A DNA stretch of 64,000 nucleotides from Candidatus Aceula meridiana (GTDB lineage Bacteria; Omnitrophota; Gorgyraeia; Zapsychrales; Aceulaceae): assembly GCA_030765185.1 (NCBI GenBank), contig JAVCDE010000026.1, positions 17,276-81,275 of the forward strand. Direction: 5' to 3'. A program made the translations under genes and the position numbers. The notes under the pieces are model-generated. The model saw nothing but the letters and a program-made list of their open reading frames with translations, searched no databases and had not been told where the DNA came from. Shown in pieces: positions 38,034-61,017 of the stretch. Position 1 is the stretch's first letter; each line of letters begins with the position of its first letter.

Positions 38034-38441
38034 ATGGGGACAATTGAACACCGTAAACTTTTTCGCGCTGAAGCTTATTTAAAAATAAGCTATGAATCCA
38101 AACGGGAACCCATCATCAAAGGGGAATTTGTGACAGTGGATATTAGCTCTATTGGGCTCCATGTTATTGGTCCAGATAAATTAGAAATTGGTACAGATCT
38201 TATTATCAAGCTGCAGATTAAAGACAGGCCGGAGTCGGTTACAGCCCTTTCGAAAGTTGTTTGGCAGAAGCCATGCAGCTATGTTCCTGCGAGCAAAAAT
38301 GCTTATTTTGCGGCAGGCTTAATGCTTCTAGACATGTCACCTGAAGATGCTATTTTAACTTCTGATTTTATTTTTGATGTTGCCAAAGAACATCAGTTCA
38401 AATACGAAAAGAAAATCATTGATCAGCTTGAGCCTTCATAA
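38034..38441 (+). CDS. PilZ domain protein (putative c-di-GMP receptor)
   Basis: An RxxxR motif (HRKLFRAE) near the N-terminus and a D-x-S-x-x-G motif (DISSIGL) about 30 aa later are the two c-di-GMP-binding signatures of PilZ domains. Confidence 0.6.
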   Translation: MGTIEHRKLFRAEAYLKISYESKREPIIKGEFVTVDISSIGLHVIGPDKLEIGTDLIIKLQIKDRPESVTALSKVVWQKPCSYVPASKNAYFAAGLMLLDMSPEDAILTSDFIFDVAKEHQFKYEKKIIDQLEPS

Positions 38442-38453
38442 ATTATTTATACC

Positions 38454-39119
38454 ATGAATATTTCCGTTATTATTCCAGTTTGCGAGTTCCAATCTGACCT
38501 ACAAAAAGCACACGAAGTTCTTATCCGTGTATTGAGAAATTTATCTTTGGAGTTTGAGGTCTTGATATGCGACGACACAGCCTCTTCTCAGTCTCATGTC
38601 GTATGCAAATTAATTAAAGATAGAGGTGCTCATACTAAGATTTTTTTGCATGAAAAAAGACTAGGATTAGGGCAAAGCCTTAGAGAGCTTTTTACCGAAG
38701 CTAAGGGAGATATTGTTTTGTATCTGAACCCTCGCGCTCTTTTTGATTATCAGGCTTTAGCAGTTTTTCTGAACAGTGTGCGACAATGTGACGTGATTGT
38801 TTCTTCTCATTACAAGGCAAAGGAGGGAGAGAAGTTGTCCCTTGCGCTGGGAGAAAGACTTTATTCTTTTTTCTGCCGATTTTTGTTAAGAATACCTATA
38901 TGTGAGATTATTCCTAGCCTAATGCTGGTGCGTCGTAAAGTATTTGCGGTTTTGCCTTTAAAGGCGTCCGGAGAAGATTTTTTAACGGAGTTTCTTGCTC
39001 GTGCGCATGGCCAAGGATTCTTGGTTAGAGAGGTGAATTTTGGTTTTCCCCCTAAAAGACGTAATGGTTTTTTCCGTTTTTTTTCTGCTTTAAATTTTCG
39101 AAAACAAATGTCTTCTTAA
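38454..39119 (+). CDS. family 2 glycosyltransferase (DPM1/GtrB-like, soluble)
   Basis: ISVIIPVCEF...EVLICDDTAS places the GT2 N-terminal Rossmann region upstream of the metal-binding DxD motif. The gene lies 12 nt after the PilZ gene and is probably co-transcribed. Confidence 0.6.
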   Translation: MNISVIIPVCEFQSDLQKAHEVLIRVLRNLSLEFEVLICDDTASSQSHVVCKLIKDRGAHTKIFLHEKRLGLGQSLRELFTEAKGDIVLYLNPRALFDYQALAVFLNSVRQCDVIVSSHYKAKEGEKLSLALGERLYSFFCRFLLRIPICEIIPSLMLVRRKVFAVLPLKASGEDFLTEFLARAHGQGFLVREVNFGFPPKRRNGFFRFFSALNFRKQMSS

Positions 39120-43476: not shown

Positions 43477-45512
43477 AACCTAAGGGAATTTTTATAACTG
43501 CAACGGATACAGATGCCGGAAAAACAACGGTAAGTTTTGTTCTTGGTGTTTTATTACATCAGAAGGGGATTGATGTCGGCATCATGAAGCCGATTCAGTG
43601 CGCAGGGCGCGACGCACAATTTTTAAAAAAAAATTTGAGGATTAAAGATTCGTTAAGAGAAATTAATCCCTATTTTGCTAAGGAACCGATATCTCCGCAT
43701 TTAGCCTTTGCCCGTCAGAAAATCGCTATCGACATAGAAAAAATTAAAAAACAATATCAAGCTTTAAGCTTAATCCATGATTTTGTCATTGTTGAGGGAG
43801 CCGGAGGATTGATGGTTCCCATTAAAGATAATTATTTGATGGCAGACTTAGCCAGAGATTTAGAGCTTGATGTCGTTGTCGTATCAAAGCTGTCCTTAGG
43901 AACAATTAATCACACTTTGCTGACTATTGAACAGGCAAGGTCTTGTGGTCTTGATGTACGCGGAATTATTTTTAATCAAATAAAAAAAGGCAAAGGGGGA
44001 ATTCCTGAGAAAACGAATTCGCAAGCGATTAAAAAATTTGGCCAAGTTCCGATTTTAGGGACAGTGTCGTATATGCCTAAGGCAACAAGAAACAGTGTTT
44101 TAAGGCAGTGTAAGAATAAAATAAATTTAAAACCTTTGCTAAAACAAGAAACAAAAAAAGCGAGCCAGCGTTTAAAAAAAGAAGATAGAGAATATATTTG
44201 GCATCCGTTTACACAGATGCAGGATTGGCAGAAAGAAAATCCGCTTATTATAGACCAAGCTAAAGGATGTTATTTAAGAGATAGCAACGGAAAATGGTAT
44301 TTAGATGGTGTTTCAAGCCTCTGGGTTAATTTACATGGACATCAACATAAAACAATTGATCAGGCTGTCTGCCGCCAGGTAAAAAAGGTAAGCCATTCAA
44401 CATTGCTTGGGCTTTCAAATGTTCCGGCTGTTGAGCTTGCGCGCGAGCTTGCTAAAATAACACCCAAGACTTTAAGGAAAGTTTTTTATTCCGACAGTGG
44501 TTCAACTGCAGTTGAAATCGCGATAAAGATTGCGTATCAGTATTGGCAGAATATCGGCCAAAAGAAAAAGACAAAAATTATTCATCTTGCGCATTCTTAT
44601 CATGGGGACACTTTAGGAAGCGTAAGCATTGGAGGCATTGATTTATTTCATAAGGTCTATCGGCATTTGATTTTTAAGACAATAAAATGGCCGACGCCTT
44701 ATCCGGATGCTTTTGGGGATAAGAAAATTTTTGCAAAAGATTTCTCAAGGTCTATCGATAGGCTTGAAATATTTTTAAAAAAATCAAATCAAACAATTGC
44801 CGCTTTCGTCGTAGAACCTATTGTTCAAGGTGCTGCTGGCATGATTGTTTGGCCTAAAGGTATTTTAAAAAGAATCGAGAAATTATGTCGTCAACACAAT
44901 ATTCTTTTTATTGCCGATGAGGTGGCAACGGGTTTTGGGCGGACAGGAAAAATGTTTGCGTGCGAACATGAGAACGTAACGCCGGATGTGATGTGCTTGG
45001 CTAAAGGAATAAGTGCAGGATATCTTCCTTTGGCTGCAACTCTGACAACGCAGAAGATTTATGATGGATTTTTATTTGATTATAAAGAGCAAAAGACATT
45101 TTTTCACGGTCACACCTATACGGGAAATCCTTTAGCGTGCGCGGCTGCGTTAGCAAATTTAGAAGTTTTCAAAAAAGAGAAGACATTAAAGAAGATACAG
45201 GCGAAGATTAAATTGTTAGAAGCTGAATTAAAAAATTTTAAGAATCTTTTCCACGTCGGTGATATTAGACAAAAAGGCTTGATGGTTGGCATTGAACTCG
45301 TTAAGTCTAAGAAAAAAAGACAACAGTATCCTTGGCAAGAAAAGATAGGTGTTAAGGTCTGTCAAAAGGTGCGTGAGCATGGAGTTATTTTGCGGCCTTT
45401 AGGGAATGTGGTTGTTTTAATGCCGCCTTTGAGCATCAGTCGTAGCGAGCTTAAGAAGCTTTTATCAGCCACTTATCAGGCGATTGACGAGGTAACAGAA
45501 TCTTATGTTTAG
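43473..45512 (+). CDS. fused dethiobiotin synthetase (N-term, BioD) + adenosylmethionine-8-amino-7-oxononanoate aminotransferase (C-term, BioA)
   Basis: The N-terminus GIFITATDTDAGKTTVS (BioD P-loop) with ...VVEGAGG is followed, from ~aa 230, by a class-III aminotransferase (HGHTYTGNPLACAAALANL, with PLP Lys in CLAKGISAG). It is one 679-aa ORF with a 4-nt overlap to bioC. Confidence 0.8.
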   Translation: MKPKGIFITATDTDAGKTTVSFVLGVLLHQKGIDVGIMKPIQCAGRDAQFLKKNLRIKDSLREINPYFAKEPISPHLAFARQKIAIDIEKIKKQYQALSLIHDFVIVEGAGGLMVPIKDNYLMADLARDLELDVVVVSKLSLGTINHTLLTIEQARSCGLDVRGIIFNQIKKGKGGIPEKTNSQAIKKFGQVPILGTVSYMPKATRNSVLRQCKNKINLKPLLKQETKKASQRLKKEDREYIWHPFTQMQDWQKENPLIIDQAKGCYLRDSNGKWYLDGVSSLWVNLHGHQHKTIDQAVCRQVKKVSHSTLLGLSNVPAVELARELAKITPKTLRKVFYSDSGSTAVEIAIKIAYQYWQNIGQKKKTKIIHLAHSYHGDTLGSVSIGGIDLFHKVYRHLIFKTIKWPTPYPDAFGDKKIFAKDFSRSIDRLEIFLKKSNQTIAAFVVEPIVQGAAGMIVWPKGILKRIEKLCRQHNILFIADEVATGFGRTGKMFACEHENVTPDVMCLAKGISAGYLPLAATLTTQKIYDGFLFDYKEQKTFFHGHTYTGNPLACAAALANLEVFKKEKTLKKIQAKIKLLEAELKNFKNLFHVGDIRQKGLMVGIELVKSKKKRQQYPWQEKIGVKVCQKVREHGVILRPLGNVVVLMPPLSISRSELKKLLSATYQAIDEVTESYV

Positions 45513-48288: not shown

Positions 48289-48822
48289 ATGAGTAATAAA
48301 TTAAAAGTAATATTAGGCTTGGGCCTGATTGCGGTGGCCTTTATTTGCATAATCGCGGTTTCTTTTTCAATTGACCGTAGAAATCAGTCTTCTGTCCAAG
48401 AAATTGATGTCCTTCAAGTAGAATTAGCTAATCTTATCGCTCAGCAAAGCGAAGACATCCTTTCTGATTCGGACAAAGAAAAAGTAGAGCGCGATCCTAT
48501 TCGCCTGGAAGATGTTTTGGCTCGTGCGCAGAGCATCTATGGCGAGGCAGAACTTGAGCGTAAGAATGGAATTCTTTGGATTGACCGCAAAAGCTCCCAA
48601 ATGATGGTTACTTTAGGGGTTGTCAACGGCCTGATGCCAGGAACTTATTTAGGTGTTTATCAAGAAAAGCTTCAAGCTGATGGCACGGTTATTAATGAAA
48701 AAGTCGATGATGTTGTTGTTGAAAAAGCGTATGACATCATCTCTTATGTTAAGTCCACAAAAAAAGCGCAAGATGATTTTAACCGCGATTATTACCGCGT
48801 TAGCATGAAGGGTTCTTTTTAG
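48289..48822 (+). CDS. single-pass membrane protein of unknown function upstream of gspE
   Basis: MSNKLKVILGLGLIAVAFICIIAVSF is an N-terminal TM anchor, followed by a ~150-aa periplasmic region. The track ORF starts at a TTG at 48214. I prefer the ATG at 48289, but the start is uncertain. Confidence 0.45.
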   Translation: MSNKLKVILGLGLIAVAFICIIAVSFSIDRRNQSSVQEIDVLQVELANLIAQQSEDILSDSDKEKVERDPIRLEDVLARAQSIYGEAELERKNGILWIDRKSSQMMVTLGVVNGLMPGTYLGVYQEKLQADGTVINEKVDDVVVEKAYDIISYVKSTKKAQDDFNRDYYRVSMKGSF

Positions 48823-48847: not shown

Positions 48848-50542
48848 ATGCGAAACAGATCCCCTATAGGTCAACTTCTTGTCGACAAAAAGATTATCAC
48901 TCCTGAGCAGCTTAAGATTGCCCTCCATGAACAGAAAAAAACAAGAGAACTTTTAGGGATTACGCTTATCCGCCTTGGATTTGTTGATGAAGAAAAGATT
49001 TATCTTCCGATTCTCGCCGGAGAGCTTGGGGTTGATTTTCTTAATTTAAAAGATTTTGAGATTCCTTCTGAGGTTATTAATAAAATTCCTGCCAAAGTTG
49101 CTGACCACTACAAAGTTATCCCCGTTGATTACAGAGATGATGTTTTAACCATTGCTCTCACGAATCCTTTAGACATCCATACCTTAGATGATGTTTCTTT
49201 GGTTGCCGGGTCTAAAGTTAAATCTGTTTTAGCAGCTCAAAAAGATATTGCAGAGGCTATCCGTAAATATTATGGCTTAGGAGCAGACACGATCGAACAG
49301 ATGATGGATACGGTAACGGTCTTGCCGCAGTCCACAGAAAGAGTTGAAGATATTCAGGAGTTGGACTCAGAAGCTTCTATCGGAAAATTTATCAATCAGC
49401 TCCTTTTAGAGTCTTATCAAAACCGGGCTACAGATATTCACATCGAACCTTTTGAAAATGAACTCAAAGTTCGTTATCGTGTTGATGGCATTCTCTATGA
49501 TGCTAAGGTTCCTATTAATATTAAGCATTTTAAAGATTCTGTTAGCTCGCGTATTAAGATTATTTCTAATTTGGATATTGCCGAAAAACGCCTGCCGCAA
49601 GATGGACGTTTTAAGGTGCGTGTCGGCGATGTTGATTTGGATTTGCGCGTATCGTTTTTACCGACACCTTACGGGGAGAGTATTGTTATCCGTATCTTAA
49701 GCTCAACAAAATTATATAGCTTGGCAGAGCTAGGGCTTGCTAGTGAAGAAGAAAAGATTCTCGACGGGTTAATTAAAAGGCCGCATGGCATTCTTTTTCT
49801 AACGGGCCCTACTGGCAGTGGAAAAACAACAACGCTTTATTCTTGCCTTTCCCGCATTAATAAGGTTGATAAGAAAATTATTACCATTGAGGACCCAATT
49901 GAATATCAACTTAATGGTATTACGCAAATTCAAATTCATCCAGCGATTGGGTTAAATTTTGCTGTGGGCCTGCGTTCGATGTTAAGGCATGATCCTGATA
50001 TTATGATGGTTGGAGAAGTCCGCGACACGGAAACTGCAGAAATTACTATTCAGGTTGCTTTAACAGGGCATTTAGTTTTCTCTACGCTGCATACCAACGA
50101 TGCCGCTTCAGCCGTGGCACGTCTTTTAGACATGGGGGTTGAACCATATTTGGTCGCAAGTTCAGTTTTGTGTTTTATCGCGCAGCGTTTAGTGCGCGTG
50201 ATTTGCCCAAAGTGCAAAAAACCAGTCCATGTATCCGCGGAAATGTTTAAGGAAATGGGCATTGATCCGAAGGCGCTTGAGGGCGTGACGATTTATGAAG
50301 GCAAAGGGTGTGAGGATTGCAATCTTACCGGATATAAAGGACGCCAGGGTATTTATGAATTTTTACCCATTACCGAAGAGATTCGTAATCTTATTATTGA
50401 AAGAGCATCGGCTGCAAAAATTAAAGATAAAGCTGTTGAGCTCGGCATGCGAACTTTGCGCGAGAGAGGATGGGAGAAAGTAAAGAGAGGAATCACCACT
50501 CCGAGTGAGGTTATCCGCGTTACTCAGCAAGAAGAAATTTAA
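48848..50542 (+). CDS. gspE: type II secretion / type IV pilus assembly ATPase with MshEN-type N-terminal domain
   Basis: The N-terminus has two tandem 24-aa motifs (IGQLLVDKKIITPEQLKIALHEQ and LGITLIRLGFVDEEKIYLPILAGELG) resembling the MshEN c-di-GMP-binding motif. The Walker A is GPTGSGKTTT. Asp-box, His-box and a tetracysteine CPKC...CEDC are present. Confidence 0.85.
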   Translation: MRNRSPIGQLLVDKKIITPEQLKIALHEQKKTRELLGITLIRLGFVDEEKIYLPILAGELGVDFLNLKDFEIPSEVINKIPAKVADHYKVIPVDYRDDVLTIALTNPLDIHTLDDVSLVAGSKVKSVLAAQKDIAEAIRKYYGLGADTIEQMMDTVTVLPQSTERVEDIQELDSEASIGKFINQLLLESYQNRATDIHIEPFENELKVRYRVDGILYDAKVPINIKHFKDSVSSRIKIISNLDIAEKRLPQDGRFKVRVGDVDLDLRVSFLPTPYGESIVIRILSSTKLYSLAELGLASEEEKILDGLIKRPHGILFLTGPTGSGKTTTLYSCLSRINKVDKKIITIEDPIEYQLNGITQIQIHPAIGLNFAVGLRSMLRHDPDIMMVGEVRDTETAEITIQVALTGHLVFSTLHTNDAASAVARLLDMGVEPYLVASSVLCFIAQRLVRVICPKCKKPVHVSAEMFKEMGIDPKALEGVTIYEGKGCEDCNLTGYKGRQGIYEFLPITEEIRNLIIERASAAKIKDKAVELGMRTLRERGWEKVKRGITTPSEVIRVTQQEEI

Positions 50543-50685: not shown

Positions 50686-51042
50686 ATGAGAGAGATGACA
50701 ATTCAAAATTTAACTTCAAAAGATAAAACAAGAAATGAAGTTTTGTTTTGCGAAGCCTTTGAGAGAGAAGGAATACGGCGAGCTCTCGAGAGAAGAAATA
50801 CCTGCAAGATTATCAATGTTCTTGAATTTGAAGACCAGGCCCATGCTGAAGATTTTCTAAGCAGAGAATCAAAGAAATGCCCACCTCCTGAAACGCGCAT
50901 TGTTCATCTTTTTAACAGTGATTTAGCTAAAGATGAAGTCATTTACAAGATTTCTGGCAATCAATATGTTGTTTTAGGCAATCGCCTTTTTGCCTTAAAA
51001 GTTTCCCATTCCTTGAAAAAAATCGTTTCCATAGCAAAATAA
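50686..51042 (+). CDS. hypothetical small protein (118 aa)
   Basis: Open frame between the gspE terminators and gspF. No recognisable motif. Calling it coding is tentative. Confidence 0.35.
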   Translation: MREMTIQNLTSKDKTRNEVLFCEAFEREGIRRALERRNTCKIINVLEFEDQAHAEDFLSRESKKCPPPETRIVHLFNSDLAKDEVIYKISGNQYVVLGNRLFALKVSHSLKKIVSIAK

Positions 51043-52360: not shown

Positions 52361-52792
52361 ATGAAGAGACGAGGTGGATTTACTTTAATTGAAATTATGC
52401 TTGTTGTCATCATCTTAGGTATTCTCGTTGCTATGGTTGTTCCGAACTTAGCCGGGCGAGGACAGCAGGCCCGCGAGGCTGCCGCCCGCGCGGACATAGA
52501 AGCTAACCTTGCAACGTCTTTGGATTTGTATGAGATGGATAATGGGAAGTATCCTAGCACGGAGCAGGGGCTGAAGGCACTTTTAGTAGAGCCGTCAACA
52601 TCACCTGTTCCTCCAAATTGGAGCGGTCCGTATCTAAAGAAAAAGAGAATTCCTCTCGATCCATGGGGCGTGGAGTATGTTTACGTTTTTCCCGGCATTC
52701 AAAATATACAAGAATATGACCTATCTTCTCTAGGCCCAGACGGCATTGAAAGCGAAGACGATATTACAAATTGGGCAGAAATCGACATTTAA
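52361..52792 (+). CDS. gspG: major pseudopilin (type II secretion GspG)
   Basis: The prepilin leader is MKRRGG|FTLIEIMLVVIILGIL (G-1, F+1, E+5). The GspG-specific C-terminal motif is LDPWGVEYVY. Confidence 0.8.
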   Translation: MKRRGGFTLIEIMLVVIILGILVAMVVPNLAGRGQQAREAAARADIEANLATSLDLYEMDNGKYPSTEQGLKALLVEPSTSPVPPNWSGPYLKKKRIPLDPWGVEYVYVFPGIQNIQEYDLSSLGPDGIESEDDITNWAEIDI

Positions 52793-53267
52793 GTTGAAAA
52801 CAAGAAAGTTTTTTTTAGGAAATGCTTTTAGCCTTATTGAGCTTCTTTTAGTTGTCATTTTAATTGGAGTTCTCGCTGGGTTGTCCCTACCACGTTTTAG
52901 TCAAAGCTATTCTCAAATTCGCCTTGAACAAACTGCTTATAACCTAGCGTCGATGATGCGCTATGCCCAAGGACGCGCTCTTTCGCGCCAAGAAGAAATT
53001 CAGCTTCAGTTTGATTCTGATTTTACGCGATATCATCTTATGGAAAGAAAAGGTGATAATTTTGAAGTGATTGAAGGCCGCAGAGGACGGGCGCAGCTTA
53101 TTCCAAAGGGAATCTCAATTGAATCAGAAGAAACAACTGTGGGATTTTCTCCAGGGGGGGCAATGGATAAGGTAAGAATTTATCTGTCTAATGAAAAAGG
53201 GAAAATATTCACCGTTACCACGAGGGAGCTAAGAGGAAGTGTTAAAGTTTTTGATTCAGAAATTTAG
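52746..53267 (+). CDS. minor pseudopilin (GspH-like)
   Basis: The N-terminal hydrophobic pilin-like helix is GNAFSLIELLLVVILIGVLAGL. An alternative in-frame TTG start at 52794 would give a short leader directly after the gspG stop; the ORF-track start overlaps gspG by 47 nt. Confidence 0.55.
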   Translation: MKAKTILQIGQKSTFKLKTRKFFLGNAFSLIELLLVVILIGVLAGLSLPRFSQSYSQIRLEQTAYNLASMMRYAQGRALSRQEEIQLQFDSDFTRYHLMERKGDNFEVIEGRRGRAQLIPKGISIESEETTVGFSPGGAMDKVRIYLSNEKGKIFTVTTRELRGSVKVFDSEI

Positions 53268-53640
53268 CCGCAGAGGGTTTGTTCTTGTTGAAGTGCTGAT
53301 GACAGTGGCCATCCTATCTGTTGTCTTAACGATGATTATACGTTCGCACATGGCAAGTTTACGCGCTTCCACATACACGGAGGAATATTCAACGGCTGTA
53401 TTACTTTTAGAAAACAAGATGACGGAATTAATCCAAAAAGGGTTTATCCGAAGAGACCTTGAGGAACAAGAAGCTTTTGATTTTCCTTACGAAAAGTTTT
53501 CTTATTTGTTTCAATCGAAAAAAAGTGAAAACGCCGAAGATTCTGACAACTTAAATGAGGTCACATTGACTTTGTTTTGGCCATCAGGAAAAGGCGAGCG
53601 TAAAATTTTAGCAACAACATATTTATTTAATTCATTTTAA
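53239..53640 (+). CDS. minor pseudopilin (GspI-like)
   Basis: The prepilin leader ...RRG|FVLVEVLMTVAILSVVL has a canonical E+5. Size is ~120 aa. Confidence 0.55.
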   Translation: MLKFLIQKFSRRGFVLVEVLMTVAILSVVLTMIIRSHMASLRASTYTEEYSTAVLLLENKMTELIQKGFIRRDLEEQEAFDFPYEKFSYLFQSKKSENAEDSDNLNEVTLTLFWPSGKGERKILATTYLFNSF

Positions 53641-53643
53641 AAT

Positions 53644-54372
53644 ATGAAAATACAAAACTCTTTAAAAGAAAATCTTAAAGCCTTCACGCTTATTGAAATC
53701 CTTATTGCCTTAGGAATTTTTTCGGTGGTCATTTTAAGTCTTTATAGCAGTTTTTGGGCGGGAATGAAGATTAATAAGCGGGCACACCAAAATGATAATA
53801 TTTATCGCCAGATCGCCTTAGGACTAGAAGAGATGGCGCATGAGCTTGAGCAGGCGGCCTCATATGATTTTTCACAATCTCAAGAGGATGCCGGTGCTTT
53901 TTATGGGACAGCAGGAGAGATCTCTTTTTTGCTCCCGACGGCGGAGGGATTGAAGCATATTCGTTATTACCTAGAGGCTGAGGAGGAAACATCTATTCAT
54001 CGTATTATTGTCGGAGAAAGTTATCAAAAAAATGTTTCTTTTACCTTAACTAATCAATCTTCACCGAGCCGGTATGCTCTTATCCGTGAAGAAAATTCAT
54101 TTGTAGACGCCATGGGAGATTCTTTTTCTTCTGACCCAGAGGTGGTTACCTTAGGAATTGCTGAAGAGGGTCTTCAATTTTCTTATGCGTTTCTGAAGCA
54201 AGAGGGCGACGGGGTAGAGATTGTATGGAAAGATGTTTGGGATGAAAACTATATTCCCGCAGGGGTGAAGCTTAAAGTGTCTTTTTTAAACGCTGAGAAT
54301 AAAAACGGTTTTCAAGAAATTGAAAAAAATATTTATATCCCAACAGGCTTTTGGGGGGAAGATGAAGTTTAA
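53644..54372 (+). CDS. minor pseudopilin (GspJ-like)
   Basis: The leader ...NLKA|FTLIEILIALGIF has E+5 and A at -1. Size is ~240 aa. Confidence 0.5.
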   Translation: MKIQNSLKENLKAFTLIEILIALGIFSVVILSLYSSFWAGMKINKRAHQNDNIYRQIALGLEEMAHELEQAASYDFSQSQEDAGAFYGTAGEISFLLPTAEGLKHIRYYLEAEEETSIHRIIVGESYQKNVSFTLTNQSSPSRYALIREENSFVDAMGDSFSSDPEVVTLGIAEEGLQFSYAFLKQEGDGVEIVWKDVWDENYIPAGVKLKVSFLNAENKNGFQEIEKNIYIPTGFWGEDEV

Positions 54373-55459
54373 TATTCTGCGATTGAGACTTCAAGATAAT
54401 TCTGGCATAATAATGATAGTCACGTTGTGGATTTTAATTATTCTTAGCGTGCTAGCCGTGGGGTTAGGCAGGCGGACGAGCTTGGATTTAGCTCTAACCA
54501 AATATAGCATCGCGAGGGCAAAGGCAATGTCTTTGGCATGGGGTGCTTTAACCTATAGTATGAATGAAATCCGCAAGGATTCAGAAGATGACGATGCGGA
54601 AAAATTTGACAGCTTTTATCAATGCGGTTTTTATCTTCCTGAAGAAAGTTCTGCCGAGGAGATTTTTGAGAATAGACCTTTAGGAGATGGGTTTTTTGAT
54701 GTGAGGTATAAAATAGAGCAGGGGAAAGGCGCAGATCGTATTTGTTATGGGTTTGAGGATGAAGAGAGACGATTAAACCTTAATTCGATTTATTCTGGAA
54801 ATTATAAAGTTCTTTACCACTTGATTGTTCTTTTAGGATTTGATGAGGCAACAGCTTTGACGATTTCGTGTTCGGTTGTTGATTGGCATGATGACGACAG
54901 CATTGTTACCGAGGCACCTCATGGGGCTGAAGATGATTATTATGTGGCATTAATTAAGCCTTATCGTTGCAAGAATACAACGTTTGAAACTATCGAAGAG
55001 CTTTTACTTGTTAAGGGCGTCACAAAAGAAATTTTCGATTCTCTTAAGGACTACGTGACAGTTTTTCCTTTAGAGGCGAGGGATTTAAAAGTAAATATTA
55101 ATACCGTCAAAGAGGATATTTTAAAGGCCATTTTTCGGGCAACAGCCGAAAGAAATCCCGGCGCCGAGGAGCTTGACGCTGATTCACTCACTCAAAAGAT
55201 TGTATCTTATCGATTAGGAGAAGATGCAATGGCCTGCACAGCTGATGACCGAATTATCGAAAAGGCCAATAGCGAGCCACTTAGCTTAAATCAGAGTGAG
55301 CAAGCGATTTTTCTTTCTGCCGTAAATCATTTTATTGAAAGCGCGCAGTATTTCCGCATTACGGTGCATGGGTACGATGAACCTTCAGGGGTTAAGGCGC
55401 AGATACAAGCTGTTGTTGACCGTGAAGACTTAACCATTTTACGCTGGCGCAGGAACTAA
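54362..55459 (+). CDS. minor pseudopilin GspK-like (no Glu+5)
   Basis: MKFNILRLRLQDNSG|IIMIVTLWILIILSVLAV is a pilin-like TM lacking E+5, as in GspK. The size is large (~365 aa). The ATG at 54362 overlaps the gspJ end by 11 nt and is preferred over the track start at 54320. Confidence 0.5.
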   Translation: MKFNILRLRLQDNSGIIMIVTLWILIILSVLAVGLGRRTSLDLALTKYSIARAKAMSLAWGALTYSMNEIRKDSEDDDAEKFDSFYQCGFYLPEESSAEEIFENRPLGDGFFDVRYKIEQGKGADRICYGFEDEERRLNLNSIYSGNYKVLYHLIVLLGFDEATALTISCSVVDWHDDDSIVTEAPHGAEDDYYVALIKPYRCKNTTFETIEELLLVKGVTKEIFDSLKDYVTVFPLEARDLKVNINTVKEDILKAIFRATAERNPGAEELDADSLTQKIVSYRLGEDAMACTADDRIIEKANSEPLSLNQSEQAIFLSAVNHFIESAQYFRITVHGYDEPSGVKAQIQAVVDREDLTILRWRRN

Positions 55460-55470
55460 CTTTAAAAAAG

Positions 55471-56895
55471 ATGAAAAAACACCTGACAACTATTATCGAA
55501 ATTACCGAAACACACGTTAAGTTTCTTGAGGCTGCTCTGTCGCGCAGAAAGCCGGTACTGTTACGGTCGTCTGTCGCGAAAATTACAGAGCCTTCCGAAC
55601 AAGGGATTTCTAAGCTTTTGACAACCATGGCTGACCCTCGCATGAAAAAAACTTATGTTGTGGCTGTTGTTCCTCGCAGGCAGGTCATGGTAAGGTATTT
55701 TTCTTTTCCGTCCCACTCAGAAGAAGAAATTAAAAAAATGATTTCTCTACAGGTTGTCCAGCAAGTGCCTTATGCGCGCGAAGACATTGTTTTTGATTAT
55801 ACAATTTTAGATAAGGACTCATCAGGCTATGCAAAAGTTTTAGCCGCTATTGCGCACAAAGAAGTGATCAGCCGGTATTTTAAAGTATTCGCAAAAGCCG
55901 GCCTCACTATCAACAGTATTGTTTTAAGTTCTATCGCAGTTGTCAATTGGCTTTCTAGTTACGAAAAGAAAGAAAAGACATCTCATGGCGTTTCTATTTT
56001 AAATATCGACACATCGACGAGCGAGATTTGTTTTTGCAAAAAGGGAAGGCTTCTTTTCTCACGCCATATTGGGTTTGGTGTAAAAGATTTAGGTGCTGAT
56101 CAAGAAGACGCTTTTGTTAGAGAAGTCGGGATGACGCTCGAGTCATATCAAAAAGAAAAGATTGGGCCGCTTCCTCAAAAGATTATCCTGCTGGCCCCGC
56201 CAGAGGCTATTGTTGGATTCTCGCAGAAAATTCAATCTGAGCTGCAGCTTAATGCAGAATTTATTGATCCGTATCAATATTTTATTGAAGCAAAAGAGAT
56301 TGCTATTCCTATCATTTCAAAAGGGGATTATTATTCTTTGGTTGTTCCGTCAGGGCTGGCTGTTAAAGGTGGACAGAAGAATTTTAATCTTTTGCCAAAA
56401 GTTGTCAGTGACCAGAGGAAGGCAAAAGCAAAAAAAAGCGCTTGGATAAAATTTTTACTGCTTGCTAGTTTAATTATTCTATTCGGCAGCGGGATTTTAT
56501 TAACAAAAGTGCAGCAGGAGAAAAATCGTTTTGATAACATTAAAGAGAAGCTAGCTGAACTTAAGCCCCGCATTGAGGAAATTAAGCGCAAAAAAGAACA
56601 CATCGAAGCTATCGAGAAATATTTGAATGTAAAGCCTTTGTCCGTGGACATTATTTATGAGTTGTATAATTTAACGCCCAAAGATGCTTCGTTTCGTCTT
56701 ATCTATGTTGACCCACAAGACAATGTAACTTTGCAGGGAATTGCAGAAAAATTATCAAGCGTTAACGGATTTCAGAGTCGTTTGGTAAATTCGTCATTAT
56801 TTACAAATGTTAATTTGCAGTATGCGACTCAGCGAAAGATTTTTCAGGGAGAGATAACAGACTTTAAAATAACGGCAGAAATCGTAAGGCCTTAA
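55471..56895 (+). CDS. GspL-like (PilM-type actin-like cytoplasmic domain + TM + PilN-like periplasmic region)
   Basis: The N-terminal ~330 aa form a PilM/FtsA-like fold. A single TM follows (WIKFLLLASLIILFGSGILL), then a coiled-coil periplasmic segment. Confidence 0.5.
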   Translation: MKKHLTTIIEITETHVKFLEAALSRRKPVLLRSSVAKITEPSEQGISKLLTTMADPRMKKTYVVAVVPRRQVMVRYFSFPSHSEEEIKKMISLQVVQQVPYAREDIVFDYTILDKDSSGYAKVLAAIAHKEVISRYFKVFAKAGLTINSIVLSSIAVVNWLSSYEKKEKTSHGVSILNIDTSTSEICFCKKGRLLFSRHIGFGVKDLGADQEDAFVREVGMTLESYQKEKIGPLPQKIILLAPPEAIVGFSQKIQSELQLNAEFIDPYQYFIEAKEIAIPIISKGDYYSLVVPSGLAVKGGQKNFNLLPKVVSDQRKAKAKKSAWIKFLLLASLIILFGSGILLTKVQQEKNRFDNIKEKLAELKPRIEEIKRKKEHIEAIEKYLNVKPLSVDIIYELYNLTPKDASFRLIYVDPQDNVTLQGIAEKLSSVNGFQSRLVNSSLFTNVNLQYATQRKIFQGEITDFKITAEIVRP

Positions 56896-56915
56896 TAAAA
56901 TAAAGGAACAAGGGC

Positions 56916-57452
56916 ATGGCCCAATTTAATCCTAGCCAAAGAGAAAAGTGGATTTTTATTTCTTGTATTCTGATGATTTGTATTTACATCGGATACCGTT
57001 TTGTTTTTATTGCGATGCAAGAGGAAGAGACATTCTGGAAGGCAAAAGTTTTAACTGCCCAACGAAAAGCAAGGAAGGACTTAAGCGTTCTTCGCGAAGA
57101 GTTCTCCGTTAATGCACGCTATGGTGAATATCTAAAAAGGCTAAAGCAAAAAACTCCAGATACTCAAGAGATGGCCTCGATTTTATCAGAGATCGAGTCT
57201 ATCGCCGGCAACATCAACTTAAAAATTGAAGATATGAAGCCGAAAAAGATTAAAAAACAAGATTTTTATAATCATTTTTCAGTTAACATCCGCATCAAAG
57301 GGGACATGGGAACTATCACAAAGTTTCTTTATGCCCTTCAAGCCAAGCCTCATTTTTTTCATATCAATGAAATGCGTCTTGAAAAACGTTCAGCCCGGAC
57401 TCAAGAAATTAAATGCGAGATTGTGGCAAGCCGCTTGCTGATCCAGCAATAG
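56916..57452 (+). CDS. GspM/PilO-like bitopic inner-membrane protein
   Basis: Short cytoplasmic N-terminus, TM helix WIFISCILMICIYIGYRFVFIA and a ~140-aa periplasmic domain. Position after the gspL-like gene supports the call. Confidence 0.45.
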   Translation: MAQFNPSQREKWIFISCILMICIYIGYRFVFIAMQEEETFWKAKVLTAQRKARKDLSVLREEFSVNARYGEYLKRLKQKTPDTQEMASILSEIESIAGNINLKIEDMKPKKIKKQDFYNHFSVNIRIKGDMGTITKFLYALQAKPHFFHINEMRLEKRSARTQEIKCEIVASRLLIQQ

Positions 57453-57646: not shown

Positions 57647-57871
57647 ATGAAGCATATATATTTAATAAAAGATTTAGCCCTTGAAACAGGGTATTCGACC
57701 CATACTTTAAAGTATTACCTCAAGGAAGGACTTTTTGAGGAAATGGGGCGTAGCCCGTCGACTAATTTTCGATATTTCGACGAAGGGGCAATCATGTGTT
57801 TGCAGAAAATCCGCAAGATGAAAAACCGCGGGCTTTCTTTAAGCGAAATAAAGGAAAGATTGAAGAATTAA
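57647..57871 (+). CDS. MerR-family HTH transcriptional regulator (small, 74 aa)
   Basis: MKHIYLIKDLALETGYSTHTLKYYLKEGL matches the MerR N-terminal HTH (M..ytIgelA..tGvs..TLRyYE..GL). The stop TAA overlaps the next gene's ATG (TAATG). Confidence 0.6.
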   Translation: MKHIYLIKDLALETGYSTHTLKYYLKEGLFEEMGRSPSTNFRYFDEGAIMCLQKIRKMKNRGLSLSEIKERLKN

Positions 57872-58707
57872 TGAGTTATTACCAAGCTTTACGTCTTAAA
57901 AAAGAACCTTTCTCGACGTCTCCGGATCCGGAGTTCTTTTATCATTCTAGAGAACATACAACCGCGTTAAAACGGCTAGAAATTGCTGTGCGCCTAAAGC
58001 GGGGCTTAAGCCTTATCTTAGGCGATGTTGGCGCAGGAAAAACAACCTTGTCGCGTGCCTTGTTGCAAAGTTTTGCCGGTGAAGAAAAAGATTTTATTTT
58101 TCACATGATCCTTGATCCGGATTTTAAAAGCGAATATCAATTTTTGTCGCATCTTACAAAGATGTTTGGAGTTTCGCCGTTTATGCGCTCGGCTATGGAT
58201 CATCGCGAGGCCATTGAAAAATATCTTTTTCAAAAAGGTGTTGAAGAGGGAAAGACAATTATTTTATTAGTCGACGAGGGACAAAAGCTTTCTATGCCGT
58301 TTATCGAAATTTTGCGAACGCTTTTAAATTATGAAACGAATGAATATAAATTACTCCAGCTGGTTATTTTAGGGCAGATGGAACTTTTACCTCGCATTAA
58401 GAAGGTGAAGAATTTTATGGATCGCGTTGCCTTAAAGTATATTATTAATCCCTTAGACGAGAGAGAAACCGAGAAAATGATTGATTTTCGTCTTCATCAG
58501 GCTGGCTTAAACGGCAACAGCCCGTTGTTTAGTCATGAGGCGATTCGAAGAATTTATGAAATTACACAAGGGTATCCACGTCAGATTACGCTTTGTTGCC
58601 ATAACGCACTTGAACGTTTGGTAATGGATGGGCGGGAAACTATTACAGTGGAACTTATTGATTCGTTAGTTGCAGAAGAGCAAAGGTGGCTTGAACATGT
58701 CGCATGA
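57871..58707 (+). CDS. gspA: ExeA/GspA-family AAA ATPase (general secretion pathway protein A)
   Basis: GLSLILGDVGAGKTTLSRAL is the Walker A. DEGQKL is Walker B-like. Size is ~280 aa. Start chosen at the ATG at 57871 (TAATG coupling with the upstream gene) rather than the track's 57796. Confidence 0.65.
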   Translation: MSYYQALRLKKEPFSTSPDPEFFYHSREHTTALKRLEIAVRLKRGLSLILGDVGAGKTTLSRALLQSFAGEEKDFIFHMILDPDFKSEYQFLSHLTKMFGVSPFMRSAMDHREAIEKYLFQKGVEEGKTIILLVDEGQKLSMPFIEILRTLLNYETNEYKLLQLVILGQMELLPRIKKVKNFMDRVALKYIINPLDERETEKMIDFRLHQAGLNGNSPLFSHEAIRRIYEITQGYPRQITLCCHNALERLVMDGRETITVELIDSLVAEEQRWLEHVA

Positions 58708-59287
58708 GGATTTACCCGAAGACAAATTATTAAATCTTATCCGAAATGGAAAGGCGAAAGATTCTTCGGAGAAAAAGGGACTAAGCCCTTCTTCCGTTGG
58801 GCCAAAGCCTTTAAGGCCGGTGCAAGAAAAAAAAGCAAGGAACTTCTTGGGCCCCATCAATAGACTCATGCTTATTGTTGTAGCGGGATTGTTAGGGTAT
58901 CTTTGTTATGAATTGTTTTATGAAAGCAAGGCTGAAGAAAGCATTCTCGAAACCGCTGCATCTCAGCCGGCTCAACCTGTTACTGTTATTGCCTTAGAGG
59001 AAAAACCTCTTTCTTATTATGAGAATCAAATTAAAAAGCGTGATATTTTTGAAAGGCCTAAGCAAGGTGTCGTCGCAACGGCCGCAGACAACGCGCTTTC
59101 AAAGAATTTTAGGCTTGTCGGAATTGTTTTAGGCGAAACCCCGGAGGCTATTGTTGAGGATGTCCTTGGAAAAAGGACATTATTTTTGCACGTTGGCGAC
59201 AAGGTTGAAGAAGCAGAAATTATTCTTATCGAAGAGGGAAAAGTTACATTCTTTTATCAAGAAGAAGAATTTGAGTTAACGCAATAA
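58697..59287 (+). CDS. bitopic membrane protein, GspB/ExeB-like partner candidate
   Basis: Single TM (LMLIVVAGLLGYLCYELFY) after an ~65-aa cytoplasmic N-terminus, then a periplasmic region. AGGTGG lies 8 nt upstream of the ATG at 58697. Overlaps gspA by 11 nt. Assignment is by position only. Confidence 0.4.
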   Translation: MSHEDLPEDKLLNLIRNGKAKDSSEKKGLSPSSVGPKPLRPVQEKKARNFLGPINRLMLIVVAGLLGYLCYELFYESKAEESILETAASQPAQPVTVIALEEKPLSYYENQIKKRDIFERPKQGVVATAADNALSKNFRLVGIVLGETPEAIVEDVLGKRTLFLHVGDKVEEAEIILIEEGKVTFFYQEEEFELTQ

Positions 59288-59310
59288 TTGAAAAAATATA
59301 GGAGATTTTT

Positions 59311-61017
59311 ATGAAAAAAATATTAATGTTGTGCTTTATTGTTGGTTTGGGCATTTTTTGGTGTAGTGCCGGAGGAGCCCAGACTTCGGGACAAACGTCC
59401 TCAGTTGATAATGCTTTGGATTTGTTTGATCAAGATGAGCAGGCAATCATAAAAGAGGCTTTAGGCGAGCCTGTGGCTGCCCCTGAGCCTATTGTCGAGC
59501 CTGTCGCTATGTCTGTTAGCGAGCCGGCTGCAGAAAAAGAACTGGTTGCCACCAAGCAACAAAGAACAGGTCCTATTTCAAAAGAGCAACAAGGGACAGC
59601 ATCTTCTTCCGTGAGGGAGGTCGGCGGAAGGCTCGTACTTGATGTTTTAGAGCTTAAAGATATGGATATTGTTGATGTTCTAAAGCTTATTTCAAAAAAA
59701 AGTGGGCTTAATATTGTTGCGGGTGCCAATGTCCGCGGGAAAGTAACGATTTATTTAAAGAATGTTGATGTTCGTGATGCGTTAAGAATTATTCTTGAGG
59801 CCAATGGCCTAGCCTTTGTTGAGGAGAATGACATTATTAAGGTTTTGACCGGAAATGATTTTGAAACGCGTTACGGTTATCAATTTGGACGTCAGACAGA
59901 AACGCGCATTGTTCAGCTTAAAAATGCCTCTGCGGCTGATTTGGTAGCAGCATTAAATCAGATGAAGAATTCGACAGGCTCTGTTGTCGCTGATGCGAAT
60001 TCTAATACCGTCATCATGACCGACCAAATTGATAAAATTATTATGATGGAGAATTTTGCGCACCATGCTGACATTCCCATAGCCTCGGAAATTTTTACCC
60101 TTAAATACTCTAAGGCGGAAGAGGTGGCAAAGAAAATTGAAGGGACTTTGACAAAAGGCATTAGTCAGATTGAATGGGATGAGCGATCGAATAAAATTAT
60201 CGTAACTGATACATCTGAGAAAATTAAAGAAATTTCCAAACTTGTTGAGGCTTTTGACGAAAAGCAGTCACAAGTTTTGATAGAAGCTAAGATCATCCAA
60301 GTTGTTTTAAGTGATACATTCAAGTTTGGAGTAGACTGGGAAGCTATTGTCCGTGATTATCACACGCTTACTTTAAATTCGGCTTTTAATGTTATATCAG
60401 ATACGGACAAAAGCGGAACGCTAAGCATTGGTACGATCGATGACGATGATTATGATGTTTTGATTGAAGCTCTTGAGACTGTTGGAGACACGAACACACT
60501 TTCGAGTCCTCGTATTCTTGCCATTAATAATGAAGAGGCAAAAATTTTAGTTGGGTCTAACGAGCCATATATCACCAGTGAAACCATCACAACAGCATCA
60601 GGGCCGGCAACAACATCAGAGAGTGTTAATTTTATTGATGTGGGTGTTAAATTGTATGTGACTCCAAAGATTCACGGAGATGGATACGTGACGTTGAAGA
60701 TTAAACCTGAGGTAAGTTCAGTTACGCGTTACCTCACAACAAGTACTAACAATGAGATTCCGATTGTGGATACGTCACAGGCAGAGACCACGGTTACCAT
60801 TAAAGATGGGGTAACAATTGTTTTAGGCGGCTTGATTAAAGATGAAGATATCGATAATGTTAACAAGGTGCCCCTTTTGGGCGATATTCCTTTTTTGGGC
60901 GCTGTTTTTCGTAATAAGAGCCAGACGACCCGTAAAACAGAGTTGGTTATTTTCTTAACGTGTCATATCGTTGGCGGGGATGTTGACGTTGAGCCAAAAA
61001 CAACCTTTATCGAATAA
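59311..61017 (+). CDS. gspD: secretin (GspD/PilQ family outer-membrane channel)
   Basis: Signal peptide. N-terminal N0-like domain (LVLDVLELKDMDIVDVLKLISKKSGLNIVAG...VRDALRIILEANGL). C-terminal secretin domain (VPLLGDIPFLGAVFRNKSQTTRKTELVIFLTCHIV). Confidence 0.85.
   Translation: MKKILMLCFIVGLGIFWCSAGGAQTSGQTSSVDNALDLFDQDEQAIIKEALGEPVAAPEPIVEPVAMSVSEPAAEKELVATKQQRTGPISKEQQGTASSSVREVGGRLVLDVLELKDMDIVDVLKLISKKSGLNIVAGANVRGKVTIYLKNVDVRDALRIILEANGLAFVEENDIIKVLTGNDFETRYGYQFGRQTETRIVQLKNASAADLVAALNQMKNSTGSVVADANSNTVIMTDQIDKIIMMENFAHHADIPIASEIFTLKYSKAEEVAKKIEGTLTKGISQIEWDERSNKIIVTDTSEKIKEISKLVEAFDEKQSQVLIEAKIIQVVLSDTFKFGVDWEAIVRDYHTLTLNSAFNVISDTDKSGTLSIGTIDDDDYDVLIEALETVGDTNTLSSPRILAINNEEAKILVGSNEPYITSETITTASGPATTSESVNFIDVGVKLYVTPKIHGDGYVTLKIKPEVSSVTRYLTTSTNNEIPIVDTSQAETTVTIKDGVTIVLGGLIKDEDIDNVNKVPLLGDIPFLGAVFRNKSQTTRKTELVIFLTCHIVGGDVDVEPKTTFIE

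Follow-up and report, generated by a model that had tools for sequence, protein, structure and literature searches.

From its homology, its fold and the conservation of its ligand-contact residues, we infer that the N-terminal domain of a GspE/PilB-type assembly ATPase of the Omnitrophota binds c-di-GMP in a lineage-specific variant of the MshEN pocket, a reading to which we give a probability of about 0.6 on the strength of the sequence and of a structural model. The ATPase (564 aa) is the translation of ORF 48848-50542, on the + strand of the window, by which we mean the whole 64,000-nucleotide stretch of DNA analysed; it has an N-terminal MshEN/GSPII domain and heads a conserved T2SS-like operon. 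A protein of its host, the Omnitrophota MAG 'Candidatus Aceula meridiana' (IMG 3300035698_985), an uncultured bacterium from an Antarctic lake (Ace Lake), matches it with 100% identity. Predatory or host-dependent members of the Omnitrophota have been reported. Within the ATPase gene there are the following elements:

48863..48934, + strand: MshEN motif I, residues 6-29, PIGQLLVDKKIITPEQLKIALHEQ, aligned to MshE R9-Q32
48935..48949, + strand: five-residue spacer KKTRE, the canonical spacing
48950..49024, + strand: MshEN motif II, residues 35-59, LLGITLIRLGFVDEEKIYLPILAGE, aligned to MshE R38-Q61
49034..49279, + strand: MshEN C-terminal alpha/beta subdomain (residues ~63-144), from Pfam PF05157 and the strands and helices of the AF2 model
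49361..50518, + strand: T2SSE ATPase core, Pfam T2SSE at residues 172-557 (E=1.6e-128), with Walker A GPTGSGKT and a CxxC...CxxC zinc motif

In an alignment of 74 sequences, conservation of the four cysteines and of the Walker A residues is 90% or more. While Pfam T2SSE is clearly matched, the ATPase sits between the named families GspE and PilB, scoring below the cutoffs of both equivalog HMMs, TIGR02533 GspE (602.3 bits, cutoff 630.25) and TIGR02538 PilB (594.7 bits, cutoff 675.65), the latter aligned over residues 7-560. The genes around it are:

48289..48822, + strand: membrane-anchored conserved protein, 177 aa, immediately upstream of gspE, with ATG 48289 as its probable start
50686..51042, + strand: conserved 118-aa protein between gspE and gspF, with a syntenic 117-aa gene in Omnitrophota genome L001
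51122..52348, + strand: gspF/pilC platform protein (Pfam T2SSF twice; TIGR02120, 376 bits)
52361..55459, + strand: major pseudopilin GspG, three minor pseudopilin-like genes and GspK (T2SSG and N_methyl, weak GspH, N_methyl, T2SSK_1st)
55471..57452, + strand: PilM-PilN fusion, GspL-like (Pfam PilM_2 and PilN in one ORF), followed by PilO/GspM (PilO, T2SSM_b)
57796..61017, + strand: AAA_22 (ExeA/MshM-like) ATPase, a 205-aa protein of no assigned family and secretin GspD (AAA_22; Secretin, Secretin_N and N0)

GspG, GspK, GspF, GspL/M-like proteins and a secretin thus lie in one cluster, which makes it T2SS-like at the operon level, and the gene order is repeated in L001; GspG scores 148.7 bits with TIGR01710 (cutoff 88.85), and PilT is absent from the window. 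The two small conserved proteins have no match in Pfam or NCBIfam. The 177-aa protein is 48% identical to the product of the same-position gene of another Omnitrophota genome, a 177-aa gene occupying the equivalent place in loci L002 and L003, and the 118-aa protein shares 38% identity (E=2e-28) with the 117-aa gene product of L001.

Residues ~1-145 of the ATPase are a homologous MshEN/GSPII domain, and residues 6-59 are a true motif pair. The Pfam MshEN model PF05157 (E=3.2e-19) aligns to residues 60-144 only; it describes the C-terminal subdomain, holds no information on residues 6-59 and was dropped as a test of the motifs. The motif pair of MshE is described by NCBIfam NF053729 'c-di-GMP_motif', a 53-position model with a curated cutoff of 38 bits, and scoring against an MshEN HMM, which the sequence-only reading had proposed as a check, bore the assignment out: the whole ATPase reached 59.0 bits (E=3e-16) and residues 1-69 reached 63.3 bits, with an alignment to the ATPase that ends at profile position 47 of 53, short of the LxxQ tail of motif II. 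Scored in the same way, the proven binders MshE, Geobacter metallireducens PilB, PilF GSPII-B, PilF GSPII-C and Myxococcus xanthus PilB gave 86.1, 68.1, 63.4, 62.1 and 59.5 bits, respectively, and the proven non-binder PilF GSPII-A also passed the cutoff, at 55.3 bits. Because this non-binder passes, the score alone is no guide to binding or gating, and we rejected it as a predictor of binding, a passing score being necessary and insufficient. The earlier proposal that the motif match predicts gating of secretion or pilus assembly by c-di-GMP consequently keeps its homologous MshEN/GSPII domain but loses the predictive value that it had placed in the motif alone.

Searches with phmmer agree with this homology. 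Residues 1-69 match Vibrio cholerae MshE (5htl) at E=6.5e-7 and Thermus thermophilus PilF at 2.2e-10, the match to MshE 5htl reaches E=4.8e-12 across residues 4-142, and the N-domain finds M. xanthus PilB at E=8.4e-23 and Geobacter PilB at 2e-22; the matches to these four proteins all begin at ATPase residues 4-7. In the AF2 model (mean pLDDT 89.8) a four-helix bundle (helices 7-13, 19-32, 36-42 and 48-60) is joined to an alpha/beta subdomain with strands 91-96, 99-104 and 123-128 and helices 110-120 and 131-142, and the two-subdomain GSPII fold is found alike by model, fold search and phmmer. The best match of the fold search was MshE with c-di-GMP (5htl, E=3.3e-11), followed by PilF GSPII-B with c-di-GMP (8pdk), and non-binders came close behind (GSPII-A, 7.7e-9; X. 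citri PilB N-domain, 1.3e-8; XpsE, 1.9e-6), at TM-scores of only 0.5-0.57. As binders and non-binders ranked together, the fold search was rejected as a means of telling them apart.

The sequence-only reading had placed two tandem 24-aa MshEN motifs at the N-terminus of GspE. Its strings, IGQLLVDKKIITPEQLKIALHEQ and LGITLIRLGFVDEEKIYLPILAGELG, are indeed present as residues 7-29 and 36-61 of the translation of ORF 48848-50542, and the HMM and phmmer matches lie far beyond chance, but the consensus is not matched and only motif I has 24 residues, motif II having 25 by alignment against the canonical 24. Neither the 2016 nor the 2024 consensus regular expression matches the N-domain. Even one perfect motif is rare among the orthologs (4 of 120 with the 2016 expression, 6 of 120 with that of 2024), and the consensus expression was set aside as a membership test, being too strict for the MshEN family.

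Alignment to MshE, the other check named in that reading, gave a mixed result. Gly3 is kept in both motifs (G8, G37), and so are the residues of the hydrophobic triads at positions 2, 17 and 21 (I7, L22 and L26; L36, I51/Y52 and L56) and, in motif I, Gln at position 24 (Q29). Judged from this alignment, however, five key positions depart from the MshEN consensus: the canonical leading Arg is absent from both motifs (R9 to P6, R38 to L35), turn Gly10 of motif I is Lys (G18 to K15), and motif II ends in Glu (Q61 to E59) and has L54 replaced by I51, or by Y52 with a one-residue insertion, next to an in-helix Pro54. The triad position L10 of MshE is I7 here. Measured against the extended consensus, which allows R, K or L at position 1, L35 fits and P6 falls outside.

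Residue counts were made over 119 Omnitrophota orthologs of 64-91% identity. Invariant among them are G8 and Q29; L22 and L26 occur in 117 and 118 sequences, respectively, and in motif II the conserved residues are L36 (118/119), G37 (116/119), G44 (117/119) and P54 (117/119). The triad positions are hydrophobic throughout, the L56 position being Leu in 102 and Ile in 12, and the five-residue spacer is kept in all 114 scorable orthologs. Position 1 of motif I varies (Pro in 62, Leu in 26, Lys in 9, Arg in 5, Phe in 4), as does its position 10 (Lys in 74, Gly in 25, Asn in 10); residue 35, position 1 of motif II, is Leu in 89 and Met in 19 and is always hydrophobic or Pro. At position 59 most orthologs have Gln (102), with His in 7, Glu in 6 and Asn in 2.

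These residues are known from other systems to matter for the ligand. Gly3 and Gln24 of MshEN contact c-di-GMP and are not core residues (PMC5013675), the backbone NH of Gly3 being directed to guanine and Gln24 forming hydrogen bonds with phosphate and ribose, and MshE mutants in Gly3 (G11, G40) lose binding (Wang 2016, Neissner 2024). By analogy with PilF, each single deviation seen here (Pro or Leu at position 1, a triad Ile, Glu59) has an experimental precedent and is tolerated (PMC11731258, PMC12207366, PMC12002112). In PilF itself motif II opens with Leu (L196), and L196R binds 4-fold worse; K167L binds at 2 nM and led, together with L196R, to the extended consensus (R/K/L)LG...; and GSPII-C, which binds, has Pro at position 1 (P335) (PMC11731258). 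This P335 aligns with P6 of the ATPase. A change of Leu to Ile in the triad costs 2.4-fold (PMC12002112), and Q218E, which alters the final residue of motif II, weakens binding 77-fold (KD 460 nM vs 6 nM for the wild type), the mutant still having a KD of ~25 nM at pH 4.5 and a c-di-GMP-bound crystal structure, 9GLG (PMC11731258, PMC12207366). The double Q-to-E mutant of PilF does not bind; by analogy, this and the 77-fold loss would count against binding here, and the combination of P6, K15, the insertion, Pro54 and Glu59 is without experimental precedent and also counts against it.

If the preferred reading of a c-di-GMP-binding N-domain holds, the N-terminal four-helix bundle would retain the pocket of MshE and of PilF GSPII-B and would hold one monomeric c-di-GMP. 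I7/G8/Q9 and L36/G37/I38 would direct their backbone NH groups to the phosphates and to the Hoogsteen edges of the guanines, the triads I7, Y52 (or I51) and L56 on the one hand and L36, L22 and L26 on the other would stack on the bases, P6 and L35 could shield the outer base faces in place of the canonical arginines, and Q29 and E59 would touch the ribose-phosphates. As E59 replaces Gln, a lower affinity is to be expected, perhaps sub-micromolar to micromolar and possibly pH-dependent, and for most orthologs, with Gln at 59, it would be nanomolar, in line with Neissner 2024, by which a hydrophobic position 1 without arginine points to a nanomolar KD. On the model of MshE and PilB/PilF, occupancy by c-di-GMP could then change how the N-domain is oriented to the ATPase and to the platform (GspF and the PilM-PilN fusion), and in this way pseudopilus assembly and secretion would be coupled to the level of c-di-GMP.

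It is in our view less probable that the domain is a degenerate GSPII/MshEN that kept its fold and lost c-di-GMP binding, and that it would serve only for docking to the inner-membrane platform, with the PilM-PilN/GspL-like protein and GspF as partners, or for stabilising the hexamer, parallels being PilF GSPII-A, the N1 domains of XpsE/EpsE and Xanthomonas PilB. Such a loss would be consistent with the twofold absence of the canonical Arg, the missing turn Gly of motif I, the insertion with Pro54 and the Glu59 for Gln, with the failure of both the strict and the extended expression while GSPII-A passes NF053729, and with the presence of non-binders at similar scores among the fold matches. 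The T2SS-like operon would also suit it, given that the N-domain of the classical T2SS ATPase XpsE/GspE of X. campestris lacks c-di-GMP binding, but XpsE has lost both Gly3 and several triad leucines (PMC5013675), all of which are kept here, and MshEN-bearing ATPases of T2SS and T4P are already known as c-di-GMP binders (PMC5013675). Gly3, the triads and the ligand-contact Q29 are invariant or nearly so in the 119 orthologs, which a docking role alone would leave unexplained. As for GSPII-A, its full domain did not bind even when the perfect consensus was restored, the site being occluded by an N-capped extra helical turn and by subdomain contacts (PMC12002112). Only five residues precede motif I in the ATPase, unstructured in the AF2 model, which would leave no room for such a blocking N-cap helix. 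A further reading, that the pocket holds another cyclic dinucleotide such as 3'3'-cGAMP, seems very unlikely to us: MshEN binds cGAMP, but weakly (KD 3.3e-4 M; PMC5013675), and the altered motif II, with an aromatic residue at the L54 position and Glu59, might shift the specificity; Gly3, through which the backbone NH recognises guanine O6/N7, is nevertheless kept in both halves, which favours two guanines, and the window gives no sign of cGAMP synthesis.

The regulatory link could in principle also be indirect, by way of a PilZ protein binding c-di-GMP and docking on the N-domain of GspE, as in the FimX-PilZ-PilB system of Xanthomonas, and two genes of the window bear on this:

38034..38441, + strand: PilZ-domain protein of canonical type, 135 aa, at 26.0 bits with Pfam PilZ (cutoff 22.5)
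38454..39119, + strand: GT2 glycosyltransferase (Pfam Glycos_transf_2), directly downstream of the PilZ gene

The PilZ assignment of the sequence-only reading, with its RxxxR ... DxSxxG motifs, was confirmed: the motifs are RKLFR (R7-x3-R11) and DISSIG (D36-x-S38-x2-G41), and in 23 orthologs R7, R11, S38 and G41 do not vary, and D36 hardly does. Its further suggestion of a second receptor candidate near the secretion genes stands in so far as the protein is a credible canonical c-di-GMP receptor, as predicted from its motifs, but the gene is conserved with GT2 and not with the secretion operon. A canonical PilZ gene ~10 kb upstream of gspE, a linkage that recurs in other Omnitrophota contigs, and the presence of the X. 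citri PilB N-domain-PilZ complex (7lkm, E=1.3e-8, TMq 0.56) among the fold matches would agree with an indirect route. In three loci (the window, L002 and L003), however, the PilZ gene is always followed directly by GT2, with gaps of 12-21 nt, and housekeeping genes (birA, the biotin-synthesis genes bioF/H/C/D-A, mnmA and pgi) intervene before gspE; the linkage of PilZ and gspE looks like general synteny. Moreover, the N-domain is only 17% identical to that of X. citri PilB. The PilZ protein of Xanthomonas, which we take to bind PilB without c-di-GMP motifs of its own, differs in this from the PilZ protein described here, which carries them. PilZ as the partner of GspE was rejected as the main reading, and we give the indirect route very little credence.

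For the secretion system the PilZ gene has no evidential weight; it suggests only that c-di-GMP is used in the lineage. Such use is probable, based on the invariant PilZ motifs and on reports of GGDEF domains in or next to Omnitrophota giant genes, with pilZ genes next to them (bioRxiv 10.1101/2023.11.21.568195). In the 37 ORFs of the window scanned with Pfam, each of at least 110 aa and the giant 8079-aa ORF, considered as a source of GGDEF, among them, there was no GGDEF, EAL or HD-GYP domain, which counts against the preferred reading.

The MshEN domain was reported in 2016 in more than 10,000 proteins, with Pfam and NCBIfam models now dedicated to it, and the N-domain of this ATPase is an expected case of a very widespread domain and a plausible addition to a known receptor family. 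If binding is true, the Omnitrophota, an uncultured and ultra-small phylum, would be added to those bacteria in which a secretion or pseudopilus motor is linked to c-di-GMP, and the domain would be a natural example of two features, an arginine-free pocket and a Glu-phosphate contact, that have to date been found in Thermus PilF or engineered mutants alone. As an MshEN motif HMM alone cannot separate binders from non-binders, annotation as 'c-di-GMP receptor' should use the individual contact residues. A bolder proposal, which we consider improbable, joins two ideas: that the GspE proteins of the Omnitrophota form a distinct arginine-free MshEN subtype, and that the Aceula clade has a natural pH-tuned or higher-threshold receptor. 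The subtype would be marked by a motif I that opens with Pro or Leu, a motif II that opens with Leu or Met, an aromatic residue in one triad and an invariant Pro kink, and its role would be to gate a T2SS-like machine located close to genes for giant surface proteins, in a phylum with reported predatory members. In the small clade P0001-P0004 the change from Gln to Glu would be naturally fixed; in engineered PilF, this change makes binding strongly pH-dependent via a hydrogen bond between protonated carboxylate and phosphate.

Among the known systems, GSPII-B of T. thermophilus PilF (8PDK) shares with the domain described here, at ~27-28% identity, the fold, the five-residue spacer, the lack of Arg at position 1 of either motif, and a motif II that has Leu as its first residue (DLLGRIL in PilF, ELLGITL here) and whose second half varies in length; the engineered Glu of its Q218E mutant, which binds at 460 nM (9GLG), corresponds to the natural E59. 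It differs in having Lys where motif I begins with Pro here, in keeping the turn Gly that is Lys here, and in a motif II one residue shorter, whereas that of the ATPase is one longer with an in-helix Pro. PilF also has three GSPII domains and serves a type IV pilus and DNA uptake, whereas here a single domain belongs to a T2SS-like operon. The non-binding GSPII-A (9G1W) resembles the domain in fold, in passing NF053729, in the Ile of the motif II triad and in a non-Gln position 24, but its motif II lacks Gly3 (A41) and begins with Ser, both its motifs lack Gln24 and its site is occluded, while the ATPase keeps both Gly3 and Q29 and has only five residues before the motif.

V. cholerae MshE (5HTL), the best fold match, likewise is an assembly ATPase with a single GSPII domain, placed at its very N-terminus; its Gly3, triads, spacer and Q32 (Q29 here) align, and the operon here also has an AAA_22 (MshM/ExeA-like) ATPase adjoining the secretin gene. 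Unlike the ATPase, MshE has a perfect RLG...Q in both motifs, at 86 bits against 63, and powers the MSHA pilus, while the operon here has a GspG pseudopilin and GspK. The PilB proteins of M. xanthus and Geobacter (3JC8, 5TSG) are the most similar in sequence across the whole N-domain and share a non-Gly residue at the turn of motif I (Asn; Lys here) and the same full-length architecture, that of TIGR02538, but in both of their motifs position 1 is Arg and position 24 Gln, and they belong to T4aP systems with retraction ATPases, in contrast to the window with its lack of PilT. Finally, P. aeruginosa PA14_29490, a second MshE-type secretion/pilus ATPase, is alike in being a demonstrated binder of c-di-GMP and differs in belonging to a proteobacterial system.

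The N-terminus of the GspE/PilB-type ATPase encoded in the window is a genuine MshEN-type domain with conserved pocket residues, and c-di-GMP binding is predicted with a probability of about 0.6.

48848-50542, + strand: GspE/PilB-type ATPase, 564 aa, with the motif pair at its 5' end

The sequence matches, at 100% identity, a protein that NCBI lists for the 'Candidatus Aceula meridiana' MAG; this Omnitrophota genome comes from Ace Lake in Antarctica (PMC8542988). The T2SSE ATPase core occupies residues 172-557 (Pfam, E=1.6e-128), and the protein scores 602 bits with the GspE model TIGR02533, just under the equivalog cutoff of 630, and 595 bits with the PilB model TIGR02538, whose equivalog cutoff of 676 is not reached. 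The Pfam family named MshEN (PF05157), which spans the C-terminal subdomain only and leaves the motif pair outside its reach, covers residues 60-144. NF053729, which NCBIfam dedicates to this motif pair as found in MshE (53 positions, cutoff 38), gave 59.0 bits for the whole protein (E=3e-16) and 63.3 bits for residues 1-69 alone, with the alignment stopping at profile position 47. In phmmer searches, residues 1-69 matched Thermus thermophilus PilF (2.2e-10) and MshE 5htl (6.5e-7), and the 151-aa N-domain matched M. xanthus PilB (8.4e-23), Geobacter PilB and PilF. An AF2 model of the N-domain, built on 74 sequences (mean pLDDT 89.8), contains helices 7-13, 19-32, 36-42 and 48-60 followed by an alpha/beta subdomain, and its top PDB fold matches were MshE with c-di-GMP (3.3e-11) and the PilF domain GSPII-B with c-di-GMP. 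The profile, phmmer and fold searches thus confirm, as homology, the motif pair that the sequence-only reading had placed here.

The fit to the consensus is poorer than that reading claimed: the pair is homologous and both glycines at motif position 3 (Gly3) are kept, but the consensus patterns of 2016 and 2024, written as regular expressions, both fail to match in GspE. Aligned with MshE, motif I shares G8 (MshE G11), L22 (L25), L26 (L29) and Q29 (Q32), and carries P6, I7 and K15 in place of R9, L10 and G18. After a spacer of exactly five residues, motif II shares L36 (L39), G37 (G40), G44 (G47) and L56 (L58); L35 and E59 replace R38 and Q61, so that both arginines and the second glutamine are lost, and L54 corresponds to I51 or to Y52 with a one-residue insertion. 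This helix-4 insertion (nt 49001-49009, residues 52-54) is typical of the Omnitrophota GspE family and occurs in none of the aligned PDB homologs; the inserted residue is aromatic in orthologs (Tyr 56, Phe 45, n=119). Pro54, which sits within helix 4, is nearly invariant (117/119) and absent from the aligned PDB homologs.

Across 119 Omnitrophota orthologs (64-91% identity), G8 and Q29 are invariant, and L22 (117), L26 (118), L36 (118), G37 (116) and G44 (117) nearly so; the spacer length is unchanged in 114/114. The residue counts are Pro 62, Leu 26, Lys 9 and Arg 5 at position 6; Leu 89, Met 19 and Phe 4 at position 35; and Gln 102, His 7, Glu 6 and Asn 2 at position 59. The small Aceula clade that includes the window protein (P0001-P0004) has Glu fixed at position 59, with all else retained. 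Because Gly3 and Gln24 are invariant though they contact ligand rather than form the protein core, this pattern argues that the family would retain a working pocket.

Published mutants and domains indicate that each deviation, taken singly, is tolerated somewhere. In MshE, Gly3 mutations eliminate binding and single triad Leu mutations weaken it more than 10-fold, while the affinity shift reported for Arg9 and Gln32 changes is at most fivefold (Wang et al. 2016, PMC5013675); the non-binder XpsE has lost both Gly3 and several triad residues (PMC5013675). A triad Leu to Ile change costs 2.4-fold (PMC12002112). PilF GSPII-B, which has Lys and Leu instead of Arg at position 1, binds c-di-GMP at 6 nM (Neissner et al. 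2024, PMC11731258), and since L196R binds 4-fold more weakly and K167L at 2 nM, the consensus was widened to (R/K/L)LG... (PMC11731258). PilF GSPII-C binds with Pro (P335) at a position 1 (PMC11731258), and P335 aligns with P6. The exact counterpart of E59 is PilF Q218E, with a KD of 460 nM at neutral pH, ~450 nM at pH 8.5 and ~25 nM at pH 4.5 through a hydrogen bond from protonated Glu to phosphate; its ligand-bound crystal structure is 9GLG (PMC11731258, PMC12207366). Because of E59, the affinity of the window protein would probably be lower, possibly pH-dependent.

Fragments of known domains, taken from PDB alignments, were scored like the window protein.

Table. NF053729 calibration
MshE: binder, 86.1 bits
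G. metallireducens PilB: 68.1 bits
PilF GSPII-B: binder, 63.4 bits
Window protein: 63.3 bits
PilF GSPII-C: binder, 62.1 bits
M. xanthus PilB: c-di-GMP binder, 59.5 bits
PilF GSPII-A: proven non-binder, 55.3 bits

Since GSPII-A passes, an HMM pass is necessary and not sufficient; the c-di-GMP reading of GspE keeps its true MshEN domain and conserved pocket, but the motif match alone cannot carry it. Putting the perfect consensus back into GSPII-A did not regain binding, because subdomain contacts, together with an additional N-capped turn of helix, occlude its site (PMC12002112). Only five residues precede motif I in the window protein, coil in the AF2 model, which would make such an N-cap block unlikely.

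The second proposed c-di-GMP receptor, a PilZ protein, stands as a candidate.

38034-38441, + strand: PilZ protein gene
38034-39119, + strand: tightly spaced PilZ-GT2 pair; also 7494-8579 in L002 and 10001-11085 in L003, two other Omnitrophota loci (three genomes)
43473-45512, + strand: 679-aa ORF with dethiobiotin synthetase-like AAA_26 and class-III aminotransferase in one chain

The protein passes Pfam PilZ, and its R7, R11, S38 and G41 do not vary among 23 orthologs, which would lend indirect support to c-di-GMP use by the organism; Pfam found no GGDEF, EAL or HD-GYP domain in the scanned ORFs of the window, all 110 aa or longer and an 8079-aa giant ORF among them. A GT2 glycosyltransferase gene always lies directly 3' of the PilZ gene, suggesting a c-di-GMP-regulated glycosyltransferase module, and birA, biotin-synthesis genes, mnmA and pgi separate the PilZ gene from gspE in the three genomes. 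A Xanthomonas-style PilZ-PilB contact, with PilZ docking on the GspE N-domain, has 7lkm among the fold matches in its favor and is nevertheless unlikely, the likely PilZ partner being the GT2 rather than the secretion system. The 679-aa ORF, an apparent BioD-BioA fusion, lies within a birA-bioF-bioH-bioC cluster and is conserved in L002 and L003.

The gspE gene heads a T2SS-like cluster.

48289-48822, + strand: conserved membrane protein without known family, 5' of gspE; 48% identity to its counterpart in L001, a locus of another Omnitrophota genome
50686-51042, + strand: conserved 118-aa gene without known family, between gspE and gspF; 38% identity to its L001 counterpart
55471-56895, + strand: PilM-like and PilN-like fusion, one ORF, 474 aa
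57796-58707, + strand: AAA_22 ATPase, ExeA/MshM-like, upstream of the secretin
58670-59287, + strand: 205-aa gene without known family, between the AAA_22 ATPase and the secretin

The order, identical in L001, is the 48289-48822 gene, gspE, the 118-aa gene, gspF, gspG (TIGR01710, 148.7 bits, cutoff 88.85), three minor pseudopilin-like genes, gspK, the PilM-PilN fusion, PilO/GspM, the AAA_22 ATPase, the 205-aa gene and the secretin; no PilT-type retraction ATPase was found within the window. The three genes without Pfam or NCBIfam family occupy matched operon positions in other Omnitrophota loci and are candidate lineage-specific secretion components; the 48289-48822 product has, by eye, a hydrophobic N-terminal anchor. 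The fusion, also found in L001, resembles GspL in layout. The best model for the AAA_22 ATPase was 'XrtA/PEP-CTERM system-associated ATPase' (175.7 bits, cutoff 324.5); we take it to resemble ExeA/GspA or MshM, proteins that aid secretin assembly.

Two large ORFs lie upstream.

292-24531, + strand: giant ORF, 8079 aa, uninterrupted (Pfam scan)
25018-29163, + strand: 1381-aa ORF right after it, no Pfam match at E<0.001

Pfam matches are scattered over the giant ORF: NUDIX, GNAT acetyltransferase, TPR, sigma-70 regions 2 and 4, a pair of CrcB-like segments (114 bits) and, weakly, LigT and RelA_SpoT. A preprint reports that giant genes of Omnitrophota are associated with GGDEF domains, with pilZ and with loci of T2SS-like type (bioRxiv 10.1101/2023.11.21.568195), and the window agrees in its T2SS-like locus and pilZ; in the reported pattern, however, the secretion locus is upstream, whereas here it is ~24 kb downstream of the giant ORF.

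By analogy with MshE and PilB/PilF, c-di-GMP may gate secretion through this GspE. T2SS and T4P ATPases that carry MshEN domains form a well-known and very widespread class, to which the window protein adds one more member.
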